The notes under the pieces: model-generated
Told to the model about the DNA's origin: nothing
Databases searched by the model: none
What the model saw: the letters and a program-made list of their open reading frames with translations, nothing else
Made by a program: the position numbers and the translations under genes
From: Streptosporangiales bacterium
Lineage (GTDB): Bacteria > Actinomycetota > Actinomycetes > Streptosporangiales > WHSR01
Reading direction: 5' to 3'
DNA: 64,000 nt
Assembly (NCBI GenBank): GCA_009379995.1
Contig: WHSR01000006.1
Span: forward strand, 41,865 to 105,864
Part shown: one piece after another, positions 1,988 to 50,068 of the stretch
How positions within the stretch are numbered: the first letter of the stretch is position 1
Layout: each line of letters begins with the position of its first letter

Positions 1988-2703
1988 TCCTTTGCCGCTG
2001 GGCCGCTGGCCACTACCTGCCGGAGCACCTCGACGGCGGCGTTGCGGTGCTCGTCCAGCACCCGTACCACCAGCTCGACGTCGCCGGAACGGACCGCCGA
2101 CACGATGACGTCGTGCTCGCGGGAGACCCGCTGACGGTTCCGCTCGTCGCCCAGGTACACCGCCCGGTAGGTGTCGGTGGCGTCCCACAGGATCCGGATG
2201 AGCCGCATCAACCGCGGCATACCTGCCGCCTCCAGCAGGATGAAGTGGAACCTGCGGTTGGCGGTCGTCATCGCCATGATGTCGCTCGCCGCGCCGGCCT
2301 TGTCGACCTCCCGCTGCGCCTCGGCGAGACGCTCCAGGTCCTCCTCGGTCAGCCGGTCGATCGCACGACGCGCCGCCTCGCCCTCCAGCAGCTGCCGGAT
2401 CCGGTACACCTCCAGCAGGTCGTCGAGGGACAGGTCGGTCACGAAGTAGCCGCGGTGCGGCCGGTACGTGACCTGCCCCTCGCCCTCCAGGATCTTCAGC
2501 GCCTCCCGCAGCGGCACGCGGCTCACCCCGAGCTGCTCGGCGAGCGCGTCCTGGCGGATGGGTTCGCCGGGGGCAAGCCGTCCGGACAGGATGGCCTGGC
2601 GCAGCTCGGAAAGGACGAATTCCTGAGCCGTCGGCGGGCGAAGGGGCCGCGTCACGGCGGTCACGATACCCCGCCCGGTGTGGCCTGGCACGATTTCAGC
2701 CAT
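1984..2703 (-). CDS. GntR-family transcriptional regulator (FadR/FCD subfamily)
   Basis: N-terminal winged HTH ...LRQAILSGRLAPGEPIRQDALAEQLGVSRVPLREALKILEGEG... followed by a helical FCD-like domain. Confidence 0.85.
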   Translation of the reverse strand: MAEIVPGHTGRGIVTAVTRPLRPPTAQEFVLSELRQAILSGRLAPGEPIRQDALAEQLGVSRVPLREALKILEGEGQVTYRPHRGYFVTDLSLDDLLEVYRIRQLLEGEAARRAIDRLTEEDLERLAEAQREVDKAGAASDIMAMTTANRRFHFILLEAAGMPRLMRLIRILWDATDTYRAVYLGDERNRQRVSREHDVIVSAVRSGDVELVVRVLDEHRNAAVEVLRQVVASGPAAKD

Positions 2704-2712
2704 GAAAGCAGG

Positions 2713-3354
2713 TCATCCAAGGTCGGCGCCCTCTCCGAGCTCGAGCCGGCGGGCATCGGTGTCGATCCGTACCCGTGAGCCGCTGAGGAAAGCGTCAACG
2801 ATGCCGAGACCGTTCGAGTTGAGCAGCCCGTCGTGCACCGAGTACGCGCGGCGCGGCCCGACCTCCCGTACGTAGTCGACCATCTCTGACACCTTGAGCC
2901 ACGGCGCGTTGGTGGGCAACAGCAGCGTGTTCACCGGTACGTCGGGGACCGTGAACTGGTCGCCGGGGTGGAACACCTCGCCGTCGACCAGGAAGCCGAT
3001 GTTGTTGACCACCGGTATGTCGGGATGGAGAACCGCATGCCACTCGCCGTACACCCCCACCTCGAAGCCGGCGACCGAGAACGCCTCGCCGCGGCCCACG
3101 GCGTGTGCGCGCACGCCGGCGTCCGCGAGCAGCCGGCGGACACTCGGATTCGTCCAGATCTCCAGGCCGGGGTTGCGGTCGACGGCGGCGACGATCCGGT
3201 CAACGTCGAAGTGGTCGACGTGCTCGTGGGTGATCAGCACACCGTCGGCGCCGAGCGTCGCCTCCGGCTCGGTAAACGAGCCCGGGTCGACGACCAGCGC
3301 CGCGCCCTCCTTCTCCAGCCGCACACACGCGTGACCCATCTTGGTGAGCCGCAT
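2713..3354 (-). CDS. MBL-fold metallo-hydrolase
   Basis: MRLTKMGHACVRLEKEG...LITHEHVDHFD carries the HxHxDH metallo-beta-lactamase motif. Confidence 0.8.
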   Translation of the reverse strand: MRLTKMGHACVRLEKEGAALVVDPGSFTEPEATLGADGVLITHEHVDHFDVDRIVAAVDRNPGLEIWTNPSVRRLLADAGVRAHAVGRGEAFSVAGFEVGVYGEWHAVLHPDIPVVNNIGFLVDGEVFHPGDQFTVPDVPVNTLLLPTNAPWLKVSEMVDYVREVGPRRAYSVHDGLLNSNGLGIVDAFLSGSRVRIDTDARRLELGEGADLG

Positions 3355-3406: not shown

Positions 3407-4555
3407 TCAGCCGCCGCGGGAGGCGGCCTCGTCCGGCTCCTCGCTCGACTGGGGCCGCGCCGTGAGGATGAGGTACACACCCCTGGTCACCAGCGGCAGC
3501 ACGAAGACGATCAGGAACGCATACGCGAGGTAGGTGTACCCCTGCGACACCAGCGCGATGATCCCGATCCGGGAGAGCACGAAGGCCAGGACGAGAACGC
3601 CCACGATCCAGACGGTCCTGGCCCGAGGGGTCAGGCCGCGGCGGCCGAGGCCCGCGAGGGCGCTGTCCACCCGGTCGAGGAACGCGCGGATCATGGCGGC
3701 GGAGGTGTCGACGACGGCGTAGACCAGGACCACCGCGAAGAGCAGGCTCAGCCCGATGCCGCCGGTCCTTTCCAGCATGACCAGCCAAGGGATGGGCGCC
3801 TCCGTCACCCCCTCGTCGTAGAAGCTCTGCACCGCCAGATAGGTCAGTACGAACGGAATGGTAACGAAAACGCCCGACAGAATACCCGCCGTAATCGTTT
3901 CGCGTCGCTTCTGCTGACGGTCGAGGCAGAAGAGTACGGGCACGACGCTCGGAATGTTGTAGCCGACGTACACCAGGCCCGACACCAACGCGGCGGCAAC
4001 CGTCGGCGACGGCGATTGGGAAACGTCGCCGCTGGCGATGACGCCCGCCGCCTCGTCCCACCGCCGCACCAGGACGAAGATCGCGAGAACGATGATGCCG
4101 ACCGAGAACAGGATGCTGCCGAGCAGGTCGAACCCCTCGAGAATGCTCCGGCCGGAGAACAGCACGATGCCTATCGCGACCAGAACGCCTATGACGGCAA
4201 GCAGATAGGGCACATGAAAGGACCCGGAAAGTACCTCACCGACCGCCGAGGTCACGATTCCGGTGACCACGATCATGAAAACGATCCATATCAGATCGAA
4301 GAGCGGCCAAAGCGGGCCTTTGAGCTTCCGTACGTACTCGCGATAATTGTAGACCCGCAGAATACGGGCCAGTTCGTAGGCGATCGTGCACAGGACCGCG
4401 AACCCTACCAGCAAGACGACGATGGTCCAGATGCCCAGTGCACCGAGCTGGCCCGCGTACTCGACGACCTCCCGTCCCGTGCTGAAGCCTGGACCCACCA
4501 CCACGATCTGAAAGATCGCGGCCGGAAGCACGAACCTCTTGAAAGCGCCGGACAT
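3407..4555 (-). CDS. YkvI-like polytopic membrane protein (putative transporter)
   Basis: Internal ATG (cat at 4553-4555) of the 3407..5041 ORF. MSGAFKRFVLPAAIFQIVVVGPGFSTGREVVEY resembles the YkvI N-terminus (GAGFASGQE). About 10-11 hydrophobic helices. Confidence 0.65.
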   Translation of the reverse strand: MSGAFKRFVLPAAIFQIVVVGPGFSTGREVVEYAGQLGALGIWTIVVLLVGFAVLCTIAYELARILRVYNYREYVRKLKGPLWPLFDLIWIVFMIVVTGIVTSAVGEVLSGSFHVPYLLAVIGVLVAIGIVLFSGRSILEGFDLLGSILFSVGIIVLAIFVLVRRWDEAAGVIASGDVSQSPSPTVAAALVSGLVYVGYNIPSVVPVLFCLDRQQKRRETITAGILSGVFVTIPFVLTYLAVQSFYDEGVTEAPIPWLVMLERTGGIGLSLLFAVVLVYAVVDTSAAMIRAFLDRVDSALAGLGRRGLTPRARTVWIVGVLVLAFVLSRIGIIALVSQGYTYLAYAFLIVFVLPLVTRGVYLILTARPQSSEEPDEAASRGG

Positions 4556-4563
4556 CACGGGCC

Positions 4564-5903
4564 TCACACGATTCCCTCGGTCTTCATGCGCTCGAGCGCC
4601 GTGGCATGGGCCGCGACGATCTGGTCCAGCTCCGATTCGCCGTGAGCCGAACTCAGGAAGGCCAGGTGTACGGGCGAGGACAGGAACACACCCTCCCGCA
4701 GGAGAAGCGCCGCCAGCATCCTCGCCGCCACCTTGTCGCTGCCGTGCAGGTCGCGTACGTTCGCCGGCTTTGCGTCGGTGAAATGGAAGCCCCACAACGA
4801 TCCGGCCCCGGTGACGTGCGCCGAGATGCCGAGCCGGCTTACCAGCGCGGACAGCTCCGAACGGAGACGATCTCCGCGCGCCTCGAGCGTGGAGTAGATC
4901 TCGGGATTCTCCAGAAGAACGTCGAGCTGCGCGACTCCCGCGGCGGTGGTCATCGGGTTGGCGGCATGCGTGCCGCCCGCCACCACGGAAAGGCCATCGT
5001 CGCCGGCCAGCACCCTGTCCACGAGGTCCCCCCGCCCGCATACGGCTCCCACCGGAAGACCGCCACCCACGATCTTTCCGAAGACAGTCAGATCCGGCCG
5101 CACGCCGAGGAGGCCAGCCGCCCCTCCTGGCGCGAGCCGAAAGCCGGTGATGACCTCGTCAGCGATCAGCACGACGCCGCACTCCCGGCAGGCGTCGCCC
5201 ACGGCCTGGAGGAAGCGGCGCTCCGCGGGCAGGGCACCACCCCCGCCGAGGACGGGTTCCACGATGACGCAGGCGAGGTCCTCCGCGTGCTCCCGGATGA
5301 TCTCCGCCGCCCTGTCGCTGTTGAAGGGAAGCGTCACGACGGTGCCGGTGACCTCCGGCGGTACCCCGGCGCTGTCCGCGACGGCCGCGGGGCGATCGGC
5401 CGTGCCCCCCAGCTGTGTATAGCTGTGCAGCAAGAAGTCCTGCCCCCCGTGCCAGCCACCCTCGAACTTGGCGATCTTGCCCCGGCCCGTTGCGGCGCGG
5501 GCGAGGCGAAGCGCCGACAGGGTCGCCTCGGTCCGCTGGAAACGAAGATCACCCTCTCCGCCCCCGGCACGGAGGAAACGATGCGCCGGGCGAGCTCGTA
5601 CTCCCCCGTGCCCGGCGCTCCGAACTGGATGCCCCGGGTGAGCTGCTCGGCGATCGCGCGCTCCACCCGCTCGTGGCGGTGGCCGAGGATCAGCGGGCCG
5701 AATCCGAGGTTGCAGTCCAGGTACCGGCGGCCGTCCAGGTCATAGAGGTACGGGCCCTCGGCACGGACCGCGTACGTGGGCACCGGCCACCAGAAACGCG
5801 AACGGGTGGCCCCGCCCGGCACTACCTGACGAGCCTGCTCGTAGTGGGCGACGCTTTGCGGCAAGAGTTCGCGTATTTCCTTTTCCACCGGCTCCAGCAT
5901 CAT
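4564..5903 (-). pseudogene. Class-III aminotransferase (glutamate-1-semialdehyde aminomutase-like), split by a 1-nt frameshift near 5532
   Basis: The N-terminal ORF (5334..5921) ends ...GAERVIFVSSG. The expected continuation [40 protein letters not shown] is in the -1 frame and runs into ORF 4564..5433. ATG at 5903 has a GAGAGGA RBS; alternative GTG at 5921. Confidence 0.7.
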
Positions 5904-12923: not shown

Positions 12924-12975
12924 CCTCGCTCTTGTCCGTGGTCTTGAATTTCTGCAAGATCACGGGCAAGAGGGG
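12924..12975. repeat. Palindromic repeat family A, short form (copy A2)
   Basis: CTCTTGTCCGTGGTCTTG - AATTTCTG - CAAGATCACGGGCAAGAG. Same outer arms as A1/A4 with the centre deleted. Confidence 0.75.
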
Positions 12976-13082
12976 AGCCGCGAGCAACGTTGACACGGAC
13001 CGCCGGCAAACGGTCCCTGCCGACGGGCATATCTCGGGACAGGGATCGCTGCCCCTTCGGGCAACCGCCGAGGCGGCCGGCC

Positions 13083-18798: not shown

Positions 18799-19524
18799 GT
18801 GCACGCGTTAACGTTCTCGTTCCTTGCCGCGCGGTACGAGGAGCACGCGGACGCGCTGCGCGGCGTCCGCAAGGAACAGCAGGAGCTGCACGACGACGGG
18901 TGGCAGTGCGGGCAGGCTCAACTCGATGACATCGAGGCGGAGATCACCTATCTCCTGCTCCGCGATTATCGGCCCGAAACACTGGTGGAGATAGGTTCTC
19001 TGTACGGCTGGTCGACGAGCTGGATCCTGCGCGCGCTCCGCGACAACGGACACGGAAGCCTGTACACCTACGACGTCGTCGACCACGTCACACGCACCAT
19101 GCCGCCCGAGCTTTCCGCGGACCGCTGGGTCTTTCGGGAAGGGGACGTGCGGCAAAATCTGGCGCATCTGCCGGCCGATATCGACTATCTCTTCATCGAC
19201 GCGGCCCATTCGGCGAGATTCGCCCTGTGGTACATCGACCATCTCTTCCCCCGCCTGCGCACGGGCACACCGACCAGCGTGCACGACGTATTCCACCGCC
19301 GCAGGCCGCTGCCGTGGACCGAAGGCGCGGTAGTCCTCGGCTGGCTACGGGAACGGGATATCCCCTATTTCACGGCGGCGAAATCCCACGAACCCGACGT
19401 ACACGACCGACTCATGCGGCTGCGGGAACGACTGGGCCTGGCCGACCCGATCCACTCCGGTCAGCACAACCCGATGATCTTCTTTACCTACGCGCGGGCG
19501 GGCGACCCTATGCCTCGACGATGA
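18799..19524 (+). CDS. Class I SAM-dependent methyltransferase (Methyltransf_24-like)
   Basis: Motif [17 protein letters not shown] and ...[10 protein letters not shown].... GTG start. The 3' end overlaps dtd convergently. Confidence 0.65.
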
Positions 19525-19933
19525 GGGTCACCGGCCCGTCGCCCGCCAGCGCCACATCCATGTGCGCGCCGAACACGCCGGTCTCCACCCGGGCGCCGCG
19601 TCGCCGCAGGGCCCCGACGAACTCCTCGACCAACGGCTCGGCGACCTCCCCCGGTGCCGCCGCAGACCACGACGGGCGACGGCCCTTGCGGGTGTCGGCG
19701 TACAGGGTGAACTGGCTGACGACGAGCAGCGGCGCGCCCACGTCGGAGCACGACGCCTCGCCTTCCAGGATCCGCAGCCCCCAGATCTTCGCGGCCAGCT
19801 TGTCGGCCTGCGCCTCGGTGTCGGTGTGGGTGGCGCCGACGAGCACGACCAGCCCCGGCTCGTCGATCGCACCCACCACCGAGCCGTCGACGGCCACGCT
19901 GGCCCGGCTCACCCGTTGGACTACCGCACGCAT
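19508..19933 (-). CDS. dtd: D-aminoacyl-tRNA deacylase
   Basis: [17 protein letters not shown]...[21 protein letters not shown]...GVFGAHMDV matches Dtd over its full length. Confidence 0.9.
19906..19932. repeat. 27-bp direct repeat, copy 1 (includes dtd codons 1-9)
   Basis: GGCTCACCCGTTGGACTACCGCACGCA is repeated 26/27 at 20806-20832, exactly 900 bp away. Confidence 0.85.
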
Positions 19934-19970
19934 CGCTGCTGAAGAAGGATCACGTTCGGCCTCTCATCAC

Positions 19971-20684
19971 CTATGCGGCTCGGTGGCTCGAGGTCACGTG
20001 TTGCCCGGCTCTCGTGGTGAGCATGGCTCCTAGCCAGTCTGGACCTATGGTGACGACGACGTCCGCAAGTTGGTGAAGCTCCTGGGCCACCGGGCTACGC
20101 CGCGGACTCGCGATGACCACGCGGCGGCCAAGGTCCTGCACGGTACGGACCGCTTCCGCCAGGTCACGGCCGCCTGTTACGAGCACCGCCGTCTCGGAGG
20201 CCCCGGACTGGCCGAGGCGGACGAGATCCAATGTGAGCAAGGTGTCCACGCCCTTCTGGGAGTGTTCTGGTCTCCACTCCCAGTGCGTCTCGAACGTCGA
20301 GACCAGTTCGTCCGGCTCGATGCCGAGGTCGACCGCCGTGTTGCGGAGCGCGGCGCGGATCGGCGTCCTCATGCGGGGAGACCTACGTTCGGCAAGGTGC
20401 CCGAGACGTACCTGAATGCCGGAAGTCAGGGCGATGGCGTCGTGGAATCTCTTCTGACTTGCATGCCGAGAGTGGGTGGAGTCGTACGCTCCGTCGTACC
20501 AGTAAGTGCGTAGAAGGGCATCGCCGTCGGCGCGGGCCGGCGGGCCGAGGCCGGCCAACCAGTCTACGACGGCTGCCGCGTTCGGGCGGACCTGGTTCGT
20601 CCTCAGCGAGAGGGCGCGCGCTCCCGCCGCAACGAGGTACCCGGCGTCAACGAAGCCGCAATATTCCCCCACGAGCGTCTCCAC
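19971..20684 (-). CDS. NYN-domain (LabA/PIN-like) protein, putative RNase
   Basis: GFVDAGYL..., RTYWYDG, QKGVDTLLTLDLVRL and AVLVTGGRDLAEAV...GRRVVI follow the NYN/LabA acidic-residue pattern. The start may be the second GTG (20672), which has a GGAG 6 nt upstream. Confidence 0.7.
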   Translation of the reverse strand: METLVGEYCGFVDAGYLVAAGARALSLRTNQVRPNAAAVVDWLAGLGPPARADGDALLRTYWYDGAYDSTHSRHASQKRFHDAIALTSGIQVRLGHLAERRSPRMRTPIRAALRNTAVDLGIEPDELVSTFETHWEWRPEHSQKGVDTLLTLDLVRLGQSGASETAVLVTGGRDLAEAVRTVQDLGRRVVIASPRRSPVAQELHQLADVVVTIGPDWLGAMLTTRAGQHVTSSHRAA

Positions 20685-20741
20685 GAAAAGGAAAGGGCCC
20701 CAACGGGGCCCACTCCAAGTCTCCCAACGGGATTGAAATGA

Positions 20742-20770
20742 AGCCTATGGAGGACATACGTGGCTGTCAA
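20742..20770 (-). promoter_or_regulatory. Sigma-70-like promoter inside the cassette (TTGACA-17 nt-TAGGCT)
   Basis: The reverse complement of 20765-20770 is TTGACA. The reverse complement of 20742-20747 is TAGGCT. The spacer is 17 nt. Confidence 0.5.
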
Positions 20771-20805
20771 CGTCGGTGTCCACAGCGAGTAATCCACTGT
20801 CAAGT

Positions 20806-20832
20806 GGCTCGCCCGTTGGACTACCGCACGCA
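20806..20832. repeat. 27-bp direct repeat, copy 2 (relic of dtd 5' end)
   Basis: GGCTCGCCCGTTGGACTACCGCACGCA. One mismatch to copy 1. Confidence 0.85.
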
Positions 20833-20896
20833 CGTCGTAGCATTCTGCCCGTCATGGCGTCGATGCTCATCACCTTCCCCGGCGACACGAGCCGCG

Positions 20897-21898
20897 GTGG
20901 CTGAGGATTTCCCGGTCGTCGCCGAGGTCGTTCGGTCGGGATTCGTGGAGAGCCGGCACCACGGCGCGTACGTCGCGCTCGACGCGGACGGCGAGATCGC
21001 CGCCGCGGCCGGTCCGGTGGGTGCGCCGATGTTCCCGCGCTCGTCCAACAAGCCGCTGCAGGCCGCGGCCATGCTGGAGTGCGGGCTCCGGCTGGAGGGC
21101 GAGCTGCTCGCGCTGGCCGCGGGGAGCCACAGCGGGGAGGAGTTCCACCTGGCCGGGGTGCGCCGCATTCTGGGCGCCGCCGGCCTCGACGAGTCGGCGC
21201 TGGGCTGCCCGCCGGCCCTGCCGCTGGACGCCGACGCCGCCCGGTCGGCGGTGCGAGCCGGGCAAGATCCGCGTCCGGCCTTCATGAACTGCTCCGGCAA
21301 GCACGCCGCCATGCTGGCCACCTGCGTCGCGGCCGGCTGGCCGGCCTACTGGTCGGCCGGTTCGTACCGCGATCCGGATCATCCGCTTCAGGTCGCGATC
21401 CGGGCCACCATCGAACGGCTGGCCGGGGAACCGGTGGCCGCGGTGGGGGTGGACGGCTGTGGCGCGCCGCTGTTCGCGCTGACGCTCACCGGCCTCGCCC
21501 GGGCGTACCGGTCCGTCGTGCTCGCCGACCCGGATGGCACCGAGCGCCGGGTGGCCGACGCCATGCGGGCCCACCCGGCATGGTGCTCGGGGAGCCGGCG
21601 CGACGAGCGGACGCTCATGCGGGGTGTGCCGGGGCTGCTGATCAAGGGCGGAGCCGAGGGCGTCAAGGCGTTCGCGTTGCCCGACGGCCGGGCAGGCGCC
21701 GTCAAGATCGAGGACGGAGCGGCCCGGGCGAGCACGCCGGTGACGGTCGCCGTACTCCGGGCCCTCGGCGCCACGCACCTTCCTGGGGCGCCCTCGGCGC
21801 GGGCGGCCTTGGACGAGCTCGCGAGCGTCCCGGTGCTGGGCGGCGGCGAGCCCGTCGGCGAGGTACGTGCCGTGAGCGACACGCGCGAGGCTCAGTAG
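20897..21898 (+). CDS. Asparaginase-family protein (L-asparaginase II / PF06089-like)
   Basis: ...VVRSGFVESRHHGAYVALDADG...PRSSNKPLQAAAML...GSHSGEEFH...MNCSGKHAAMLA...GVDGCGAP... Start assigned to an in-frame GTG; exact start uncertain. Confidence 0.7.
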   Translation: MAEDFPVVAEVVRSGFVESRHHGAYVALDADGEIAAAAGPVGAPMFPRSSNKPLQAAAMLECGLRLEGELLALAAGSHSGEEFHLAGVRRILGAAGLDESALGCPPALPLDADAARSAVRAGQDPRPAFMNCSGKHAAMLATCVAAGWPAYWSAGSYRDPDHPLQVAIRATIERLAGEPVAAVGVDGCGAPLFALTLTGLARAYRSVVLADPDGTERRVADAMRAHPAWCSGSRRDERTLMRGVPGLLIKGGAEGVKAFALPDGRAGAVKIEDGAARASTPVTVAVLRALGATHLPGAPSARAALDELASVPVLGGGEPVGEVRAVSDTREAQ

Positions 21899-28767: not shown

Positions 28768-28850
28768 CGGTTCTGACGCCGAGATCTATGTTGTGGGGGC
28801 CATTTTGTCCGATTCGGACCCCCGCAACATAGATCTCGGCGTCAGAACCG
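28768..28850. repeat. Palindromic repeat family B (copy B1, extended 32-bp arms)
   Basis: CGGTTCTGACGCCGAGATCTATGTTGTGGGGG ... CCCCCGCAACATAGATCTCGGCGTCAGAACCG, 31/32 complementary, 19-nt centre. Confidence 0.9.
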
Positions 28851-31742: not shown

Positions 31743-31922
31743 TGCCCACCTCCGAAAGAACACGTGGGCGGAAACCCGCCGGGACAATCCAAGCACGTCC
31801 TAACCGGCAGAAAGGGCCTGCTCGCCCAAAGTGCCCAAATCGGCCACCGCCGCGGGCAGGTTCGCTCCGTCGGCCGACCGGTCGCCTAGTCTCGAACGTC
31901 GGCGTGTAGAGGGGAGCAGGCG

Positions 31923-32435
31923 GTGGACGAGGAGCGGACCGACGTGCGCATCGAGGCGCGGATCGAGCCGGCCGGCGTGGCGGACGCTGGGGAGATCTTG
32001 ACCCTGCAGCGCGCTGGGTACGTCGGCGAGGCCCAGCTGTACGGCGACCCGTTCCTCCCGCCGCTGGTGGAGTCGCTGGCCCAGATACGGGCCGCCATCG
32101 AGAACACCGCGTCCGGCGGAGACATCGTGCTCAAGGCGTGCCTGCACGGGCGCGTCGTCGGCGCGGCGCGCGCCAAGCAGGTCGGCCGTACCGGCTCGGT
32201 GTTCCGGCTCGTGGTCGCGCCCGACGTTCAGGGCCGCGGCATCGGCACCGCCCTGCTGCGGGCCGTCGAGGAGGCGTTCCGCGGCCGAGTCGAGGAGCTC
32301 GTTCTGTTCACCGGAGACCGCAGCGACGGGAGCCTCCGCCTCTGCCGCCGGTTCGGGTACACCGAGATCCGCCGCGAGCGGATCGCGCCGCACCGAGGAC
32401 TGGTGCACATGCGCAAGCCGCTCGCGGACCCATAG
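31923..32435 (+). CDS. GNAT-family N-acetyltransferase
   Basis: Acetyl-CoA motif RLVVAPDVQGRGIGTALLRAVE and C-terminal RFGYTE. Confidence 0.85.
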   Translation: MDEERTDVRIEARIEPAGVADAGEILTLQRAGYVGEAQLYGDPFLPPLVESLAQIRAAIENTASGGDIVLKACLHGRVVGAARAKQVGRTGSVFRLVVAPDVQGRGIGTALLRAVEEAFRGRVEELVLFTGDRSDGSLRLCRRFGYTEIRRERIAPHRGLVHMRKPLADP

Positions 32436-32442
32436 CGCATAG

Positions 32443-32507
32443 CGCCGAGATCTATGTTATGGGTCCGTTTTGTCCTGTTTCGTACCCCCACAACATAGAT
32501 CTCGGCG
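32443..32507. repeat. Palindromic repeat family B (copy B2)
   Basis: CGCCGAGATCTATGTTATGGGT ... ACCCCCACAACATAGATCTCGGCG. Lies between convergent stops (32435 and 32523). Confidence 0.85.
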
Positions 32508-35672: not shown

Positions 35673-35844
35673 CCCGCCATCGGGAGGCCGGCCTTCTGGA
35701 CGGGCCACATCGGCCAGCGTCGCCGCCCCGAATCCGGGTAAGCCGTTCCAGGAAGGCGTCCACGACCTCGCCGCCCTCTTGGATGAACGGCGGACCATGG
35801 TAGGACTTCACTGCTCGATGAATTTAGCCACCAAGGAGCCGGCC

Positions 35845-37074
35845 ATGGAGAGCACAACCTGCTGCATCGTCGGAGGCGGACCGGCCGGAGCCATGCTCGG
35901 CCTGCTTCTCGCCCGCGCCGGCGTCGACGTGGTCGTGCTGGAGAAGCACGCAGACTTTCTGCGGGACTTCCGCGGCGACACCGTGCACCCGTCCACGCTC
36001 GAGCTGCTGGACGAGCTCGGTCTGGCCGAGCGCTTCGCCGAGCTGCCCCAGGAGCACGCTCCCACCCTGAGCATGGTGACCGACGAGGGTCCGGTGACCG
36101 TCGCCGAGTTCAGCGCCCTGCGCCACCCGCACCCTTACATCGCGTTCGTGCCGCAGTGGGACTTCCTCGCCATGCTGACCGACGAGGCGGGGCGCTACCC
36201 GACGTTCACCCTGAAGATGCAGGCGGAGGCCCACGACCTGATCCGTGAGGGTGGGCGGGTACGCGGCGTCCGCTACCGCGACCGCGACGGCGAGCACGAG
36301 CTGCGGGCGCAGCTCACCGTCGCCGCGGACGGCCGCCACTCGGCCCTGCGCTGCGCCGCCGGGCTGACGCCCGTCGGGTACGGCGTGCCCATGGACGTGG
36401 TGTGGTTCCGGCTGTCGCGACGCGAGTCGGACCCGCGGCAGGAGGTAGCCCTTCGGCTGGTCACCGGCGGCCTGATGGCCTACATCGGGCGCGGGACGTA
36501 CTGGCAGATCGCGTACATCGTGCTCAAGGGCGGGTACGAGCGGCTGATGTCCGCCGGTCTGGACGTGCTGCGCGCCGAGATCGTGAGTCGGCTGCCGTTC
36601 CTCGCCGATCGGGTCGGCGAGCTGGCCGACTGGAACGACCTGAGCGTGCTCGACGTGCGCATCGACCGGCTCCGCCGCTGGTACGTGCCCGGGCTGCTGT
36701 GCATCGGGGACGCGGCGCACGCCATGTCCCCGGTCGGGGGCGTCGGCATCAACCTGGCGATCCAGGACGCCGTCGCGGCGGCGAACCTGCTCGCCGAGCC
36801 GCTGCTGCGGGGACACACCTCCGTCGACGACCTGGCGAAGGTGCAGCAGCGCAGGGAGATGCCCGCCGCGGCGACCCAGTGGATGCAGCGCGTGCTGCAG
36901 GCCCGCTTTATCGGACCGCTGCTGCGCGGCACCCGCCCGCCGGTGCCGCCGCTGCCGGCGCGCCTGCTCTCTCACTTCCGCCCCGGGCGGCATCTCATCG
37001 CGCACCTCATCGGGGTCGGCGCACGCCCCGAGCACGTACGGCTCCCGGTCCCGGATTCCGTGCCGCGCGGCTGA
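35845..37074 (+). CDS. FAD-dependent monooxygenase/oxidoreductase
   Basis: AAGGAG RBS. CCIVGGGPAGAMLGLLLARAGVDVVVLEK (dinucleotide fold) and LLCIGDAAHAMSPVGGVGINLAIQDA (GD motif). Confidence 0.85.
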   Translation: MESTTCCIVGGGPAGAMLGLLLARAGVDVVVLEKHADFLRDFRGDTVHPSTLELLDELGLAERFAELPQEHAPTLSMVTDEGPVTVAEFSALRHPHPYIAFVPQWDFLAMLTDEAGRYPTFTLKMQAEAHDLIREGGRVRGVRYRDRDGEHELRAQLTVAADGRHSALRCAAGLTPVGYGVPMDVVWFRLSRRESDPRQEVALRLVTGGLMAYIGRGTYWQIAYIVLKGGYERLMSAGLDVLRAEIVSRLPFLADRVGELADWNDLSVLDVRIDRLRRWYVPGLLCIGDAAHAMSPVGGVGINLAIQDAVAAANLLAEPLLRGHTSVDDLAKVQQRREMPAAATQWMQRVLQARFIGPLLRGTRPPVPPLPARLLSHFRPGRHLIAHLIGVGARPEHVRLPVPDSVPRG

Positions 37075-37097
37075 GACGTTCGCGCCGCCGTACGGCC

Positions 37098-37169
37098 CTG
37101 CCTTGGTCGTGATCTTGCAGAAATTCAACTCGGGCCGATTCAAATTTCTGCAAGATCACGGCCAAAGGG
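37098..37169. repeat. Palindromic repeat family A, long form (copy A4)
   Basis: CCTTGGTCGTGATCTTGCAGAAATT-CAACTCGGGCCGATTCA-AATTTCTGCAAGATCACGGCCAAAGG. Differs from A1 at a handful of positions. Confidence 0.9.
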
Positions 37170-37206
37170 ATCAGCCGACGCACAAGCGGCGCGGCAGACT
37201 GGTCCC

Positions 37207-38428: not shown

Positions 38429-38478
38429 CACGTGATCTTGCAGAAACTGCCCACTTCGGCAAGATCATGGGCAAGGTG
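38429..38478. repeat. Palindromic repeat family A, diverged copy (A5)
   Basis: CGTGATCTTGCAGAAA ... GCAAGATCATGGGCAAGG. The outer left arm has diverged. Lies in a divergent promoter region. Confidence 0.55.
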
Positions 38479-38494
38479 TGGGAGGGCGGGGGCA

Positions 38495-39068: not shown

Positions 39069-39452
39069 ATGGACGGCGTGAACAGGCTCGGCTACCTCGA
39101 ACGAACCGTGATGAACGTGCTGTGGGAGCGCGGGGAGCCACTCACCGCGCGCGACGTGGGCCGTGCCCTCGCCGGCGATCGCGACCTCGCGCACACGACG
39201 GTGATGACGGTCCTCGACCGGCTGGCGAAGAAGGGGCTGCTGGCGCGCCAGCGGGACGGTCGGGCATGGCGCTACCGGCCGGCGGCCAGTCGGGAGACGT
39301 ACGTGGCCGAGCTGATGCTGAATGCTCTCGACCAGACGAGGGACAGAGACGCGGCCCTCGCTCGCTTCGCCCGTTCGGTCACCGGCGAGGAGGCGCGGGT
39401 GCTACGCAGCGCGCTGGACGAGATCGAGCGCGGGAGAGGACGCGGGGGGTGA
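39069..39452 (+). CDS. blaI: BlaI/MecI/CopY-family transcriptional repressor
   Basis: LGYLERTVMNVLWERGEPLTARDVGRAL...AHTTVMTVLDRLAKKGLLARQRDGRAWRY is the penicillinase-repressor winged helix. Confidence 0.9.
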   Translation: MDGVNRLGYLERTVMNVLWERGEPLTARDVGRALAGDRDLAHTTVMTVLDRLAKKGLLARQRDGRAWRYRPAASRETYVAELMLNALDQTRDRDAALARFARSVTGEEARVLRSALDEIERGRGRGG

Positions 39453-39456
39453 CACC

Positions 39457-40374
39457 GTGATCACCGCCGCGCTGCTCGCCGCGCTGTCCCTGGTATGCGT
39501 GGCCGCCGCCACCGCGCTGGCGCCGGCCAGATGGCCTCGGCGGGGGCCGAGCTCCGGGATCGTGCTCTGGCAGGCGATCGGACTCGCTTGGGGACTGGCC
39601 ATGGTCGGCGCGGCGCTGGCGGTTGCCGTCGCCCCGTACGGCCGAGGACTGGCGTTCGGGCTCGTCGCGCTCGTCCGCGGGGACGTTCCCGTCGCGCTCG
39701 GCCCGCTGCGCATCGTGGCGCTCGCGGGCGGGACGGCGCTCTTCGGCCTGCTGGTCAGCGCGCTCCTCGCCTCGCTCGTGCAGGTCGGCCTGGCGCGGCG
39801 GCGGCACCGTACGCTGCTCGCGCTGCTGGCCGACGGGCACCCCGGGCTGCCCGGAACGCTCGTCGTCGACCACCCGGCCGCGGCCGCGTACTGCGTGCCG
39901 GGGGTCCGGGCGCGTGTCGTGGTCAGCGCCGGGGCCCTCCGACTGCTCGCCCGCGACGAGCTGCAGGCGGTACTGGCACACGAGCGCGCGCACGCACGGG
40001 AACGGCACGACCTTGTGCTGCTTCCGTTCACCTCGCTGCGCTGGATCTTCCCGCGGTCCCGGATCGTACGGAACGCGATCGACGCGGTCTCGCTCCTGGT
40101 GGAGATGCGGGCCGACGACCGGGCGCTGTCGGAGCAGCCTCGTCGGCTGCTCGCCACCGCGCTGCTGCGGTTCGGCGCGTCCGAGCCGCGGGCCACTCCG
40201 TCCGGCACGCTCGGCATCGCCTTTCCCGCGGTATCCCAGGATCCGGTGGTCGTCCGCGCGCTGCGGTTGATCGGGCCCAGTCCGGCGCTGCCCCGGCACA
40301 TCCAGGTCATCACCTGGGGTACCGCCGGTGCGCTGGCGGCGCTCCCGCTGGCGCTGGCCCTGCTCCCGCTCTGA
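39457..40374 (+). CDS. M56-family (BlaR1-like) membrane metallopeptidase, no sensor domain
   Basis: GTG 5 nt after the blaI stop. 4 TM helices. Zinc motif LAHERAHARERHD (HExxH). Confidence 0.8.
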   Translation: MITAALLAALSLVCVAAATALAPARWPRRGPSSGIVLWQAIGLAWGLAMVGAALAVAVAPYGRGLAFGLVALVRGDVPVALGPLRIVALAGGTALFGLLVSALLASLVQVGLARRRHRTLLALLADGHPGLPGTLVVDHPAAAAYCVPGVRARVVVSAGALRLLARDELQAVLAHERAHARERHDLVLLPFTSLRWIFPRSRIVRNAIDAVSLLVEMRADDRALSEQPRRLLATALLRFGASEPRATPSGTLGIAFPAVSQDPVVVRALRLIGPSPALPRHIQVITWGTAGALAALPLALALLPL

Positions 40375-40468
40375 CGGTCCCTTGGGCAACCTGCCGTGCC
40401 GCGACGGCGTCATTAGGACTGCAGCGAGTCCGCTGCAGTCACCGTCGATGGAGATTTGGGGTACTCCG

Positions 40469-42174
40469 ATGCGTTCCAACCTCAAGCACGTCGCCGCGTT
40501 ATTCGCCGCCACGCTCGCGGTGACCCTCCCGGCCGCCATGGTCTCTCTCGCCACGACGCCGGCTGCCGCAAGCGCCCCACCGCGGTCCTGCCCGCCCCGG
40601 TACCGGTGGGCGAGATCAAGGAAGGGATGACCGGCTCGGGCCTGACCGTAAGCAAGGGCACCACGCCGGAGCCGTTCCAGGTGACGGTTCAGGGCGTCCT
40701 CGAAGACGGGATCGCGCCCGGCGTGGACATGATCGTCGTCGAGGCGGACTCGCCGACGTTGGATCGGGTCGGCGGGATCTGGGCCGGCATGTCCGGCTCG
40801 CCGGTCTACGCCGACGACGGCCGCATCATCGGCGCGGTCGCGTACGGGTTCTCCCTCGGCCCGTCGAAGATCGGCGGCATCACGCCGGCCGAGGAGATGC
40901 TCGAGGTCCTGGACGACCCGGCGCAGGTTCAGGCCACGCGGGCCAAGGAGAAGCTGGCCCTCCCGGAGGCGATGCAGCGTGAACTCGTCGCCAGCGGGGC
41001 GGCGAGCGAACAGCAGGTCGAACAAGGTCTGGGGCGACTTCCGTTGCCGTTGGGCGTCTCTGGCGCGAACGAGCAGCGTCTGCAGGGCATGCAGGAGGAG
41101 CTGGCGAGGCGCGGGCTGAACGTCCGCGTCTACCGGGCCTCCGCCGCCGGTGCGCGATCGCCGGTGCCGCCGTCGGCACGACGACCATGGTGTGTTCCGG
41201 GCTGGCGCTCGCGTTTGGCCATCCGTTCAACCAGCTCGGCCCGGTCGCGATGAGCGCGCACACCGCCGAGGCGATCACCGTGGTCGACGACCCGGCTGGC
41301 ACCCCGTTCAAGCTCGCGAACATCGGCGGGGTCGCCGGGACCCTCGACCAGGATCGGCTGACCGCCGTCCGGGCCCGGCTCGACGAGTCACCGACGGCAA
41401 CCCCCATCACCTCGCACGTCTCCTCGGGGGACCGGTCGCGGACGGGCACCTGCTCGCCAACCTGGACCTGGTCTTCGACAGGTTTGTCGTGCCCGGCACC
41501 TCGACGGTCAGCTGGACGGTGACCGGGCGGACCGCGAGCGGGCAGCAGTGGACGCTCGACCGGACCAACCGCTATGCCTCGTCCGATGACATCACGTTCG
41601 CGGCGTCCGGGGAGGTCACCCAGCAGCTCGCAACGATCACCACCAACCGGTTCGAGGCGGTCGAGATCACCGACGTTGATCTCACCGCATCGGTCGATCC
41701 CGACTTCGCGCAGTTCACCGTCGACACCGTGTACGCCAGAGCGGACGGCGACTGGGTGGAGGTCGGCCCGGACACGCCGATCGAGGCGACCGCCGGGCAG
41801 GCCCTCGGCCTTCGGGTCGACCTGACGGCGTACCGGCGCCCACCCGTACCGTCGAGTTCCAGATCGACGTGCCCGAGAACCGCGCGGGCGGTACCGGACA
41901 GCTGACCGTCGCCGGCGGGCTCGTCGACTACCCCGGCCCGGATCCGTTCTGCGTGCTCCAACCGTCGTTCTGCGCACGTGAGGATCCGGGTGGCGAGTCC
42001 GTGCCGGACCTGGTGGAGAGGCTGCAGGACGAGCCGAGGAACGACGATCTGCTCGTCACACTGGACCTCGACCCGGTCGACGGCGGCCCGAGTCAACCCG
42101 TCACGATCGACAGTTCCAAGCGGCTCGACCAGGTTGTCACCGGGGAGCAGCTGATCCCGGTCACCGTCAGCTGA
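40469..42174 (+). pseudogene. SpoIVB-like S55 serine peptidase, interrupted by four frameshifts
   Basis: The signal peptide (MRSNLKHVAALFAATLAVTLPAAMV...), the catalytic segment VGGIWAGMSGSPVYADDGRIIGAVAYGF, then ...GTTTMVCSGLALAFGHPF..., then the C-terminal parts lie in 5 successive frames. Shifts are near 40575, 41150, 41425 and 41840. Confidence 0.65.
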
Positions 42175-45335: not shown

Positions 45336-45402
45336 CCGCCGAGATCTATGTTGTGGGGCAAGTAATCGGGCAAAACGACCCCCGCAACATAGATCTCGGC
45401 GG
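45336..45402. repeat. Palindromic repeat family B (copy B3)
   Basis: CCGCCGAGATCTATGTTGTGGGG ... CCCCCGCAACATAGATCTCGGCGG. Starts 4 nt after the stop at 45332. Confidence 0.9.
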
Positions 45403-49378: not shown

Positions 49379-50068
49379 GTGGGGCTCAAGGGTGGCCGGG
49401 GCGATGACGAGGACTGCCTGCCGCCGGTCGACGTTGTCGTCCCCAACGATGCCCGCGAACTGGAGGCGGATGTCCGGGCGTACCACCGCGAGCTGCGACG
49501 ACGGCACAGGCGGCAACGCTGGACACGGCTGGCTCGCGGGCTGCGCCTACACGGCATCACCCTCCCGCTCGCCCTCGTCGCGCTCCTGCTCGTCGGGCTG
49601 AGTACCGCCCTCATGACGCTGCTCGGGCCACGTCCGACGTCCCGTCCGTCGCCGGCCGCACTGGCCAACCGGCCGCCGGCCGCGCCGGGCAAGGTCGGCG
49701 GCCTGCTCCCGGACACCGCGGTGGTAGTTGGCGAGGAGCGGGAGCGTACGAGGCAACTGCGCCCCGCGGTCGTCGCGCTGATCCCCTGGGGCTGCCGGTG
49801 CGATCGGGCGGCCGACGAGCTGTATCGACAGGCGCGGGCGTTCTCGCTGCCGGTCTACTTCGTGGCGAGCCGCCGCCCGGTTGACGAGCTGCGGCCGCTC
49901 ATCGGCACGGCGGGCCACGGGCTGGCGGTTCCGGTACACGACGGCCCGGGCACGCTGGAGTCGGCGTACCACGCCTCCGGCCTCACCGCGGTCCTCGTCC
50001 GCCGAGATCTATGTTGCGGGGGAGTCGAATCGGACAAATCGACCCCACAACATAGATCTCGCCGGTGA
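49379..50068 (+). CDS. Hypothetical single-pass membrane protein
   Basis: GGGAGG RBS before a GTG. TM helix ITLPLALVALLLVGLSTALMTLL. High GC3. The 3' end reads through repeat B4 and stops just after it. Confidence 0.5.
   Translation: MGLKGGRGDDEDCLPPVDVVVPNDARELEADVRAYHRELRRRHRRQRWTRLARGLRLHGITLPLALVALLLVGLSTALMTLLGPRPTSRPSPAALANRPPAAPGKVGGLLPDTAVVVGEERERTRQLRPAVVALIPWGCRCDRAADELYRQARAFSLPVYFVASRRPVDELRPLIGTAGHGLAVPVHDGPGTLESAYHASGLTAVLVRRDLCCGGVESDKSTPQHRSRR
49999..50065. repeat. Palindromic repeat family B (copy B4)
   Basis: CCGCCGAGATCTATGTTGCGGGGG ... CCCCACAACATAGATCTCGCCGG. Followed by a 12-nt tandem TCTCGCCGGTGA x2 plus a variant (50057-50092). Confidence 0.9.

Follow-up and report, generated by a model that had tools for sequence, protein, structure and literature searches.

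How did a complete NYN/LabA-like gene come to lie between two nearly identical copies of the 5' end of dtd, with dtd itself remaining intact? The window, by which we mean the whole 64-kb stretch of DNA that was analysed, contains the following features at this locus.

19508..19933, minus strand: dtd (D-aminoacyl-tRNA deacylase), intact, 141 aa (PF02580, E 1.7e-49)
19906..19932, no strand assigned: direct repeat copy 1, identical to nt 2-28 of the dtd coding sequence and fused to the dtd body
19933..20805, minus strand: insert, a complete NYN transcription unit, GC 0.65, missing from the empty-site contigs
19934..19970, minus strand: 37-nt spacer between the NYN stop codon (TAG 19973-19971) and the dtd ATG (sequence reading, terminator scan)
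19971..20672, minus strand: NYN/LabA-like gene, 233 aa (PF01936)
20169..20171, minus strand: NYN codon 168, GGC (Gly) (alignment A1)
20686..20751, minus strand: conserved leader RNA motif with hairpin 1 (20722-20732), hairpin 2 (20695-20711) and then a T-run (terminator scan)
20742..20770, minus strand: candidate cassette promoter, TTGACA (20770-20765), 17 nt, TAGGCT (20747-20742) (read from the sequence)
20806..20832, no strand assigned: direct repeat copy 2, orphan dtd 5' end on the native GTG start, whose first base is 20833
20833..20896, no strand assigned: native dtd/asparaginase divergent intergenic region, contiguous with dtd in an empty-site contig
20897..21898, plus strand: L-asparaginase II gene, native divergent neighbour of dtd (PF06089, E 3.4e-106)

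The direct repeats

The first-pass annotation had described a pair of direct repeats, the first of which it read as the 5' end of the intact dtd gene, and both points were borne out. The sequence GGCTC[A/G]CCCGTTGGACTACCGCACGCA occurs at 19906-19932 and at 20806-20832, with 26 of 27 positions identical and a start-to-start distance of 900 bp, and copy 1 is formed by nt 2-28 of the dtd open reading frame. Copy 2 is followed on the plus strand by a C that completes a GTG start, and the orphan reads VRAVVQRAS. The G at 20811 (Ala8) occurs in the window alone; this position is A in the empty allele and also in the X1 strain, whose repeats are therefore identical over 27 of 27 nt. When up to three mismatches were allowed, just these two copies were found within the 64-kb window and none in 100 dinucleotide shuffles of it. 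The best flanking repeat measured 10-15 nt (95th percentile 15) around 200 random window positions and nine other genes, the latter mostly of low GC3. Only the NYN gene lay above this null, and a flanking repeat as a general trait of the low-GC3 genes of the window was rejected. An assembly artefact was likewise rejected, as independent Logan contigs from three samples (X1-X3) cross both junctions (for example 19706-20117, 19706-20681 and 20606-21333).

Empty and filled alleles in relatives

The first-pass annotation had proposed a search of related genomes for an empty site in which the repeat is present only once, and such a site was found in a relative with a flank identity of about 94-98%. 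Metagenome contigs from another study show the order dtd body, one repeat copy, native upstream region and asparaginase gene. One of them, 1409 nt long, comes from X5 and X7 and another, 231 nt long, from X6; neither differs from the window over 19895-19932. From 19932 they run on as CGTCGTAGCATTCTGCCCGTCATGGCGTCG, which is the sequence of 20833-20862; when they are aligned on 20806-20930, the loose end is GGTCACGCTGGCCC, which is that of 19892-19905. Since this relative has the repeat once and lacks the cassette, the NYN cassette is a true insertion, and the locus is polymorphic for insertion and empty site.

Filled alleles also exist. In at least two more distant relatives NYN occupies the same junction with dtd, the dtd start being preceded by ...VISNYRAA* CCA ATG in X1 and by ...VTSNYQAA* GCG ATG in the filled relative of X5, whose contig ends at 20734. 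Their NYN-dtd spacer is thus only 3 nt long (TAG CCA ATG or TAG GCG ATG), compared with 37 nt in the window, where the spacer contains no terminator and no obvious ribosome-binding site. The Logan data for the filled samples are assembled contigs, from which rare variants are dropped. As to the direction of change, the insert may have been gained in the window lineage or precisely lost from the empty lineage, which the repeat pair allows; the reading preferred below supposes a gain.

The native start of dtd

The empty-site allele has GTG where dtd of the window has ATG (19933-19931), the first base of which is supplied by the end of the insert. The earlier proposal that copy 2 is the native dtd start beside its native upstream region finds support in the contiguity of that region with dtd in the empty-site contig and in a -10-like box, AGAAT (ATTCT on the plus strand, 20842-20846), 8 nt upstream of the orphan GTG. 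Among 86 related dtd loci, 20 have an AGAAT box 6-8 nt upstream of the start, where 0.5% would be expected by chance. On the other side of the intergenic region the asparaginase gene probably starts at GTG 20897; this gene directly adjoins dtd in L002, L003, L006, L010 and L015. In the window dtd is most likely now transcribed together with NYN from the cassette promoter.

The inserted module

As the first-pass annotation had stated, a single protein gene lies between the repeats. Its product belongs to the NYN/LabA-like proteins, with 34.7 bits for PF01936 (curated cut-off 24.2) and an NYN fold. The AlphaFold model (pLDDT 88.6) finds its best Foldseek matches in 2qip (TM 0.76 on the target, E 1.5e-7) and in the NYN domain of MARF1, 6fdl (probability 1.0). 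The longest NYN open reading frame begins at 20684. We take GTG 20672, preceded by GGAG, as the probable start, because the X5 relative has ATG at 20672. The acidic residues D9, D143, D149 and D170 are kept and the full conserved set is not: position 168, the first Asp of the acidic GDxD motif in 18 of 18 aligned homologues, is Gly in the window. The filled relative of X5 reads GAC at this codon (20170 C>T on the plus strand), and the SGDGDF motif of 2qip aligns there. The nuclease of the window is possibly weakened or inactive, judged from this substitution.

Upstream of the gene a leader with two hairpins was recognised, the second of which, together with the T-run, resembles a terminator. 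A similar design lies upstream of NYN homologues across phyla, a terminator-like hairpin being preceded there by 1-4 small ones; most loci have one small hairpin before the terminator, and some have 2-4 tandem hairpin units. Nine of ten leader base pairs covary. A covariance model of the leader scores 51.5 bits in the window, and every other match lies directly upstream of an NYN gene; Rfam gave no match in 19300-21100. An 8-mer is common to the repeat and, as reverse complement, to the leader hairpins, with a chance probability of about 0.1.

The claim that the gene has its own promoter is supported. Candidate -35 and -10 boxes can be read in the sequence, and NYN homologues show similar boxes at the corresponding position before hairpin 1; a strict sigma-70 promoter scan did not call them, and the assignment therefore depends on inspection of the letters and on this conservation of position among homologues. 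Promoter, structured leader and NYN gene are, by these sequence comparisons, one conserved unit.

The insert is foreign in composition. The lower GC content noted in the first-pass annotation was confirmed (0.61-0.69 in the insert, 0.72-0.78 in dtd and the asparaginase gene), and the codon-usage profile that it had proposed gave the same picture, with a GC3 of 0.78 compared with 0.92 in dtd and 0.91 in the asparaginase gene. The best matches in the protein database were 57% for NYN, 88% for dtd and 73% for asparaginase. Also correct was the statement that no recombinase is present: neither a recombinase nor any other mobility domain was found in the insert or among the 36 open reading frames of the 64-kb window. 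Terminal inverted repeats, a mark of DDE transposons, IS elements and MITEs, are lacking, the first 40 nt and the reverse complement of the last 40 nt agreeing at 12 of 40 positions. The short target duplication of fixed length of such elements is lacking as well, since the duplication measures 27 nt in the window and 43-232 nt at other NYN loci. Nor does the insert resemble an integron gene cassette: its sole strong hairpin, an RNA-leader motif, is on the 5' side of the gene and not at the 3' end, where an attC site would be, and no integrase was found in the 64-kb window.

NYN genes and dtd at other loci

NYN homologues sit in unrelated genomic contexts. Neither dtd nor an asparaginase gene was found near the NYN homologue at 87 loci, and a functional pairing of NYN with dtd was rejected on this count (0 of 87). 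Conversely, at 86 dtd loci no second dtd 5' end, no NYN gene and no homologue of the window methyltransferase occurred within about 4-5 kb. The first-pass annotation had proposed a search for the cassette on plasmids and phages: NYN had no match among phages and a single match of 39% among plasmids, and the 27-mer repeat was not found in viral contigs.

Flanking duplications recur. Three other NYN loci (L104, L134 and L112) are bracketed by direct duplications of 43-232 nt. In local alignments of flank to flank the scores were 108 for L104/L105 (232 nt), 36 for L134 (84 nt), 34 for L112 (43 nt) and 24 for the window, and all four loci exceeded every one of 84 shifted controls, whose maximum was 19. 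The repeat of L104 is the 5' end of a DUF1156 gene and that of L134 the 3' end of an integrase gene; at both loci one copy is intact and the other a decayed orphan. The four NYN inserts share neither an end motif nor inverted terminal repeats. L128-L131 were rejected as an instance of clean target duplication; they involve a high-copy repeat family with many alternative joints. A spanning empty site was obtained for the locus of the window only. For L104 the result is suggestive: in X46 the flanks are present and the cassette is absent, with no contig spanning the site.

Origin of the insertion

The reading towards which we lean is that an 873-bp module entered the first 28 nt of dtd by an insertion that used no recombinase of its own and created a long target duplication, probably along a route of break repair. 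The module would consist of the promoter, the conserved two-hairpin leader with its terminator-like stem and the gene with the NYN/LabA-type nuclease fold. The 27-bp repeat would be the duplicated target and not an attachment site carried by the element. Most likely a linear DNA fragment was captured during the repair of a break with staggered ends, no dedicated recombinase taking part, and the fill-in of 27-nt overhangs would have produced the duplication. The promoter-distal copy would have stayed on the dtd body, where the insert with its last base completed a new ATG, and the promoter-proximal copy would have been left as an orphan start on the native leaderless promoter of dtd. Selection would then have retained an event that left dtd intact. 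Unrelated targets, duplications of 43-232 nt and the lack of common ends or inverted repeats fit a duplication made from the target better than an attachment site borne by the element.

Such events have been described as insertion with long target duplication (Nobusato et al. 2000; Furuta, Abe and Kobayashi 2010, PMC2853133). In this class the repeats often span start or stop codons of neighbouring genes, mobility genes are lacking, single nuclease genes (mcrA) can be the cargo and one reported case comes from an actinobacterium, Clavibacter (PMC2853133). The insertion in the window shares with it a small block without integrase, transposase or terminal inverted repeats, a repeat that spans the start codon and is single-copy at the empty site of a relative (X5/X6/X7), a duplication length that varies between insertions and a deviant GC content of the insert. 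It differs in its cargo, which is an NYN-fold gene with a structured leader and not a restriction-modification system, and in its repeat of 27 bp, which falls below the limit of more than 30 bp that Furuta et al. (2010, PMC2853133) set to exclude att-type repeats; at the other NYN loci the duplications reach 43, 84 and 232 nt. With regard to the route, fragments between 30 bp and 18.8 kb in size are captured at breaks by nonhomologous end joining (NHEJ) in Streptomyces and Sinorhizobium, accompanied by fill-in synthesis, and this has been proposed as one way in which actinomycetes acquire DNA horizontally (Hoff et al. 2018, PMC5869714; Dupuy et al. 2019, PMC6379672). Integration at a break independently of a recombinase would be common to both. 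The scars reported for NHEJ capture are, however, short fill-ins and microhomologies and not duplications of 27-232 nt, and the link to the window is a conjecture.

The first-pass annotation had suggested the integration of a small circle carrying a copy of the dtd start, either of the Campbell type or by a site-specific recombinase acting in trans. That the cassette is a true insertion agrees with this suggestion, and a Campbell-type origin is possible, because relatives exist in which NYN already adjoins dtd; the copy in the window could then stem from recombination with a donor and not from fresh break repair. According to this scenario, a fragment reaching from upstream of the NYN promoter to nt 28 of dtd entered a genome with an empty site and recombined through the 5' sequence of dtd that the two had in common. 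The fragment could have been circular, or it could have been linear, with one end anchored in dtd and the other joined illegitimately. The scenario comes close to the Campbell option of the annotation and needs no dedicated recombinase. A length of 27 bp is near the minimum for RecA-dependent exchange. One filled relative is abundant (about 50x) in the samples of the organism of the window (about 6x); the 3421-nt contig of this relative aligned with neither NYN nor the asparaginase gene at 80% likeness. Moreover, subtraction of 34 nt from the spacer of the window leaves the same TAG GCG ATG junction, and the homology between donor and recipient would begin exactly at nt 2 of dtd, as is seen. 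Arguing against this origin is the dtd sequence of the window itself, which near the junction matches the empty-site lineage (no difference in 38 nt, two in 100), whereas 14 differences in 137 nt separate it from the filled lineage that was sampled. Furthermore, it explains neither how NYN first came to adjoin dtd nor why duplications flank NYN modules at unrelated targets. We regard it as possible but doubtful.

The second half of the suggestion, a dtd-specific site served by a recombinase in trans, has fared worse. Here the 27 bp would be the att identity block of a non-autonomous or decayed element, integrated by a tyrosine recombinase encoded elsewhere, and the 5' end of the target would be restored as it is by the SXT/R391 elements in prfC (Hochhut and Waldor 1999; PMC2791158). 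These, too, enter a conserved gene with a role in translation at its 5' end, are bordered by short sequences that are nearly identical and keep the target functional by supplying a new 5' end and upstream signals; unlike the 0.9-kb insert without a recombinase, SXT measures about 100 kb, encodes its own tyrosine integrase and Xis and always uses prfC, whereas related NYN modules occur at other targets. CIMEs, decayed ICEs or IMEs that have kept attL and attR (PMC5704250), are similar in that they lack a recombinase, lie between direct repeats and occupy one end of a conserved gene. They derive, however, from integrase-bearing elements at the same att site, none of which turned up at dtd, and the repeats around NYN modules in other places are different ones. 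In favour of this origin, the repeat has a length that is common for the core of an att site. The identity extends exactly from within the gene up to the start codon, with the element bringing a new start and promoter, which follows the logic of 5'-end integrators (PMC2791158) and CIMEs (PMC5704250). Filled and empty sites are, in addition, patchily distributed among close relatives. Against it stand the missing recombinase in the insert and the 36 window reading frames, the 86 dtd loci, which showed no second dtd 5' copy and no recombinase-bearing element at the same att site within flanks of 4-5 kb, and the 87 NYN loci, which revealed no independent insertion on the same target. The results with viral contigs, phages and plasmids given above and the other NYN modules, whose targets differ, whose repeats measure 43-232 nt and whose ends have nothing in common, point in the same direction, and the 27-mer has by eye no clear dyad symmetry. 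A dtd-specific att site is accordingly the less likely option, and we consider this origin improbable. Still more remote is a homing-like spread, in which the empty dtd site would be cleaved by the NYN protein or a partner and repaired from a filled allele, the cassette being copied in the process, in the manner of free-standing homing endonuclease genes to which part of the host gene is attached. The nuclease fold of the cargo and the presence of the same junction in several lineages, with a closer lineage empty, would suit such a process. NYN domains are known as RNases, however, and no DNA-cutting homing enzyme of the NYN type is known; in addition, the targets of the other NYN modules are unrelated and the NYN of the window is without one conserved Asp. 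We regard homing as highly improbable.

Meaning of the insertion

The movement of small gene cassettes that lack a recombinase is poorly understood, and insertion with long target duplication has so far been described almost only for restriction-modification genes. The dtd locus offers a clean and datable example in a high-GC actinobacterium, with filled and empty alleles in nature and an essential-type target gene that survived the insertion. Since the same footprint occurs elsewhere in the cargo family, this mode of insertion can be tested with a second kind of cargo. If dtd is indeed transcribed with NYN, an insertion can part a housekeeping gene from its leaderless promoter and leave it dependent on the promoter of the incoming gene.

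In its design the module resembles type III toxin-antitoxin loci (ToxIN, CptIN, TenpIN), which likewise combine a promoter, a short structured or repeated RNA, a terminator and a gene of the endoribonuclease type, are patchily distributed and often lie in mobile or defence-related neighbourhoods. It departs from them in the fold of the putative toxin, NYN (PIN-like) and not ToxN/AbiQ, and in having mostly one small hairpin before the terminator. From this analogy one might suppose that the NYN gene and its two-hairpin leader form an undescribed selfish module of toxin-antitoxin (type III-like) or defence character, spread by recombinase-independent insertion with long target duplication, and that the window holds a fresh example with a blunted nuclease (Asp168Gly); we put this forward as a rather unlikely proposal. 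If it were true, the leader RNA would control or neutralise the NYN ribonuclease, and the module would spread as restriction-modification genes do. The conserved structured RNA upstream of a widespread NYN gene family provides a handle on what NYN proteins do.

The NYN gene lies between two copies of the dtd start

The 27-nt direct repeat that the first-pass annotation had described around an NYN-domain gene (PF01936) is real. Its copies, GGCTCACCCGTTGGACTACCGCACGCA at 19906-19932 and GGCTCGCCCGTTGGACTACCGCACGCA at 20806-20832, are spaced exactly 900 bp apart; they are the only two matches at ≤3 mismatches in the 64-kb window, and none occurred in 100 shuffled sequences (0/100). The best flanking repeats of nine other genes, mostly of low GC3, and of 200 random positions in the window measured 10-15 nt. 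Copy 1, joined to the body of the D-aminoacyl-tRNA deacylase gene dtd, corresponds to nt 2-28 of the intact gene. Copy 2 is an orphan dtd 5' end beside the native upstream region, and the NYN gene is the sole gene, and the one ORF, between them. Both junctions are bridged by independent contigs of single runs, from three samples, which rules out an assembly artefact as the source of the structure.

Features of the dtd locus
19508-19933, minus strand: intact dtd (PF02580, E 1.7e-49)
20686-20751, minus strand: two-hairpin leader directly upstream of the NYN gene
20833-20847: AGAAT box before the dtd start, seen in 20 of 86 dtd loci

The further neighbours are genes for a ygfZ-like folate-binding protein and a class I methyltransferase, with L-asparaginase II on the opposite side. 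GC3 of the insert is 0.78, compared with 0.92 in dtd, 0.92 in the ygfZ-like gene and 0.91 in the asparaginase gene; as a whole, the inserted DNA forms a complete module of foreign character.

Upstream of copy 2 the sequence reads, in dtd orientation, ...GGCAGAATGCTACGAC GTG, and the same box occupies the same place in the closest dtd loci (ggcagaatgcaccgaa GTG in L002, ggcagaatgcatggtc ATG in L007). In 20 of 86 actinobacterial dtd loci, A[GC]AAT precedes the start codon by 6-8 nt, the chance rate being 0.5%; a box of this type is absent at copy 1. Judged from its spacing, it looks like a -10 element positioned for a leaderless mRNA, and the comparison points to leaderless dtd as the usual state in these actinobacterial lineages. 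In several Streptosporangiales-type genomes dtd lies directly beside the asparaginase gene in divergent orientation, and at none of the 86 dtd loci is there, within about 4-5 kb, a further dtd 5' end, an NYN gene or any homologue of the window's methyltransferase.

The public asparaginase gene call (P0241, 383 aa, 20747-21898, plus strand) starts about 150 nt too early and crosses the start of the orphan dtd copy; for the conserved protein, the start lies near the GTG at 20897. The methyltransferase gene (18799-19524, plus strand, GC3 0.80), situated between the ygfZ-like gene and the dtd 3' end, overlaps dtd by 17 nt, and no flanking repeat was found around it (best 11 nt). Its slot beside dtd is filled by an LtrA gene in two other loci (L085, L089); dtd is therefore variable on both sides.

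An empty site and filled relatives

Four metagenome runs (X5-X8) of one sample from a different study contain an organism that shares about 94-98% identity with the window in its flanks. Its empty-site contigs (1409 nt in X5 and X7, 231 nt in X6) show 0 differences to window 19895-19932 and run on beyond 19932 as CGTCGTAGCATTCTGCCCGTCATGGCGTCG, which is window 20833-20862. When the same contigs are aligned on 20806-20930, the loose end GGTCACGCTGGCCC equals 19892-19905 with a C>T change at 19894. The ends of the cassette have no depth of coverage. The empty dtd allele has a GTG start and Val8, and thus the A of the present dtd ATG was supplied by the insert. A strain of the window's species in run X1 has A at 20811 and repeats identical at 27/27; the G at 20811 (orphan Ala8) is a later private change of the window.

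In two more distant lineages, whose dtd is about 90% identical to that of the window, the NYN gene ends at the dtd start codon. The junction reads ...VTSNYQAA* GCG ATG in the X5 relative, whose NYN gene is about 85% identical to the window's, and ...VISNYRAA* CCA ATG in the abundant X1 relative. The window has ...VTSSHRAA* followed by 37 nt, and removal of 34 nt yields the same TAG GCG ATG junction. The insertion is therefore common to, or was exchanged among, these relatives, whereas a closer lineage is empty. Two histories of the filled/empty polymorphism are conceivable: the window's lineage may have gained the insert, or the gain may be older, with precise loss in the empty lineage via the repeats. 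We estimate at roughly 0.1 the probability that a 27-nt orphan retains 0 or 1 change at about 13% neutral change, so that age alone cannot decide between gain and loss.

The NYN family at other loci

The NYN homologues are solitary genes that stand in a different context in every genome, with neighbours that include an ABC transporter, a Type ISP restriction enzyme with IS1595, a luciferase-like gene and DeoC; dtd was not found near them at other loci. Flank-to-flank alignment of 700 nt on each side of the NYN gene at 78 loci, with 84 controls for which the same geometry was displaced from the gene (mean score 11, maximum 19), revealed five locus groups that exceed the controls.

Flank repeats above the shifted controls (score; aligned length; identity)
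L104/L105: 108; 232 nt; 83%
L128-L131: 56; 110 nt; 85%
L134: 36; 84 nt; 81%
L112: 34; 43 nt; 93%
Window: 24; 27 nt; 96%

The L104 repeat corresponds to the 5' end of a gene for a DUF1156 protein, with the intact copy at the gene body and a decayed orphan beyond the NYN module; the search for its empty site gave only a hint. The L134 repeat comprises the last 27 codons and the stop of a tyrosine-integrase gene, the other copy being a decayed orphan. The L128-L131 repeat (in L129, 2200-2308 and 3358-3464 around NYN at 2396-3159) was not counted as a target duplication because it is a high-copy repeat, with a depth over 100 in soil metagenomes and many alternative joints. The NYN gene of this group is likely a pseudogene, as it is split into two ORFs.

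Mode of insertion

The footprint in the window matches what has been described as insertion with long target duplication, in which gene blocks lacking mobility genes sit between long repeats whose length varies; such repeats occur once at the empty site and in many cases lie across a neighbour's start or stop codon (PMC2853133). Lone nuclease genes are possible cargo, and double-strand breakage has been suggested as the factor that such cases have in common (PMC2853133); the window's 27-bp repeat falls just below the authors' cut-off of 30 bp. In Streptomyces and Sinorhizobium, breaks have been shown to capture DNA independently of a recombinase, with fill-in synthesis (PMC5869714, PMC6379672). 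If staggered breaks were made 27 nt apart, then filled in and joined to a captured fragment of 873 bp, precisely the observed structure would result; we infer break repair as the mechanism. None of the 36 further window ORFs has an integrase or transposase domain, their domains being housekeeping or of uncharacterised kind. The insert ends carry no inverted repeats, and no motif is common to the ends of four inserts. The gene was not found in phages, plasmids yielded one relative (39%), and the 27-mer is absent from viral contigs.

The first-pass annotation had proposed a circle carrying a copy of the dtd start, integrated by Campbell-type or site-specific recombination. This model agrees less well with the data on the NYN family than does long target duplication. 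Its Campbell variant, in which the donor already held NYN beside dtd, is the strongest rival.

The NYN gene and its leader

Relative to the X5 relative, NYN substitutions number 22/9/8 at codon positions 3/1/2, which indicates purifying selection. Structure comparison of the predicted model (pLDDT 88.6) gave matches to the LabA-like protein 2qip (TM 0.76 on target) and to the MARF1 NYN domain. Codon 168 (20169-20171, minus strand) is GGC (Gly) in the window; this residue is the first Asp of GDxD in 18/18 aligned homologues and GAC (Asp) in the X5 filled relative. The window's protein has lost this conserved acidic residue, and the nuclease may be weakened in the window's lineage.

Upstream of the NYN gene, TTGACA-17 nt-TAGGCT is followed by a small hairpin and then by the hairpin GGGCCCCGTTGGGGCCC with a T-run. 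The leader design, a small hairpin with an NTTG loop, a short linker, a GGGCCnC-nTT-GnGGCCC hairpin and a T-run, recurs directly upstream of NYN genes in many metagenomes and in distant taxa (L081, L082, L090, L091, L095-L131 and others), the homologues concerned being 26-58% identical. Compensatory changes occur in 9 of 10 predicted pairs among 27 sequences. A covariance model of the leader has one match in the window and otherwise matches only directly upstream of NYN genes, at 17 further loci, with 0/32 in dtd control loci; Rfam holds no match. Some NYN loci have 2-4 tandem small hairpins, a layout similar to that of type III toxin-antitoxin loci. The 8-mer CCCGTTGG (plus strand) within the dtd repeat, at 19912-19919 and 20812-20819, is the reverse complement of the core common to both leader hairpins (20699-20706, 20725-20732; chance probability ~0.1).

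Consequences for dtd

Before the insertion dtd would have been leaderless, with a -10 box of its own; it would now be second in order behind NYN and begin with a new ATG, and no terminator was found between NYN and dtd. The native dtd promoter would now drive an orphan frame of 76 codons, which extends into the leader and the start of NYN.

Other repeats and low-GC3 genes in the window

Five more low-GC3 (0.75-0.78) ORFs with no Pfam match (1939-2778, 3407-5041, 31800-32408, 35824-37143, 39379-41025) are scattered in the otherwise housekeeping region of the window, and around none of them does a flanking repeat exceed chance. Four copies of a palindromic repeat of 65 nt (CGCCGAGATCTATGTTG...CAACATAGATCTCGGCG), at 28777-28841, 32443-32507, 45337-45401 and 50000-50064, resemble a small family of the MITE/REP type. 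A direct repeat of 32 nt that opens with AATTTCTGCAAGATCACGG, also in four copies (1275-1306, 12947-12978, 37143-37174, 38452-38483), could represent a common regulatory site or leader.
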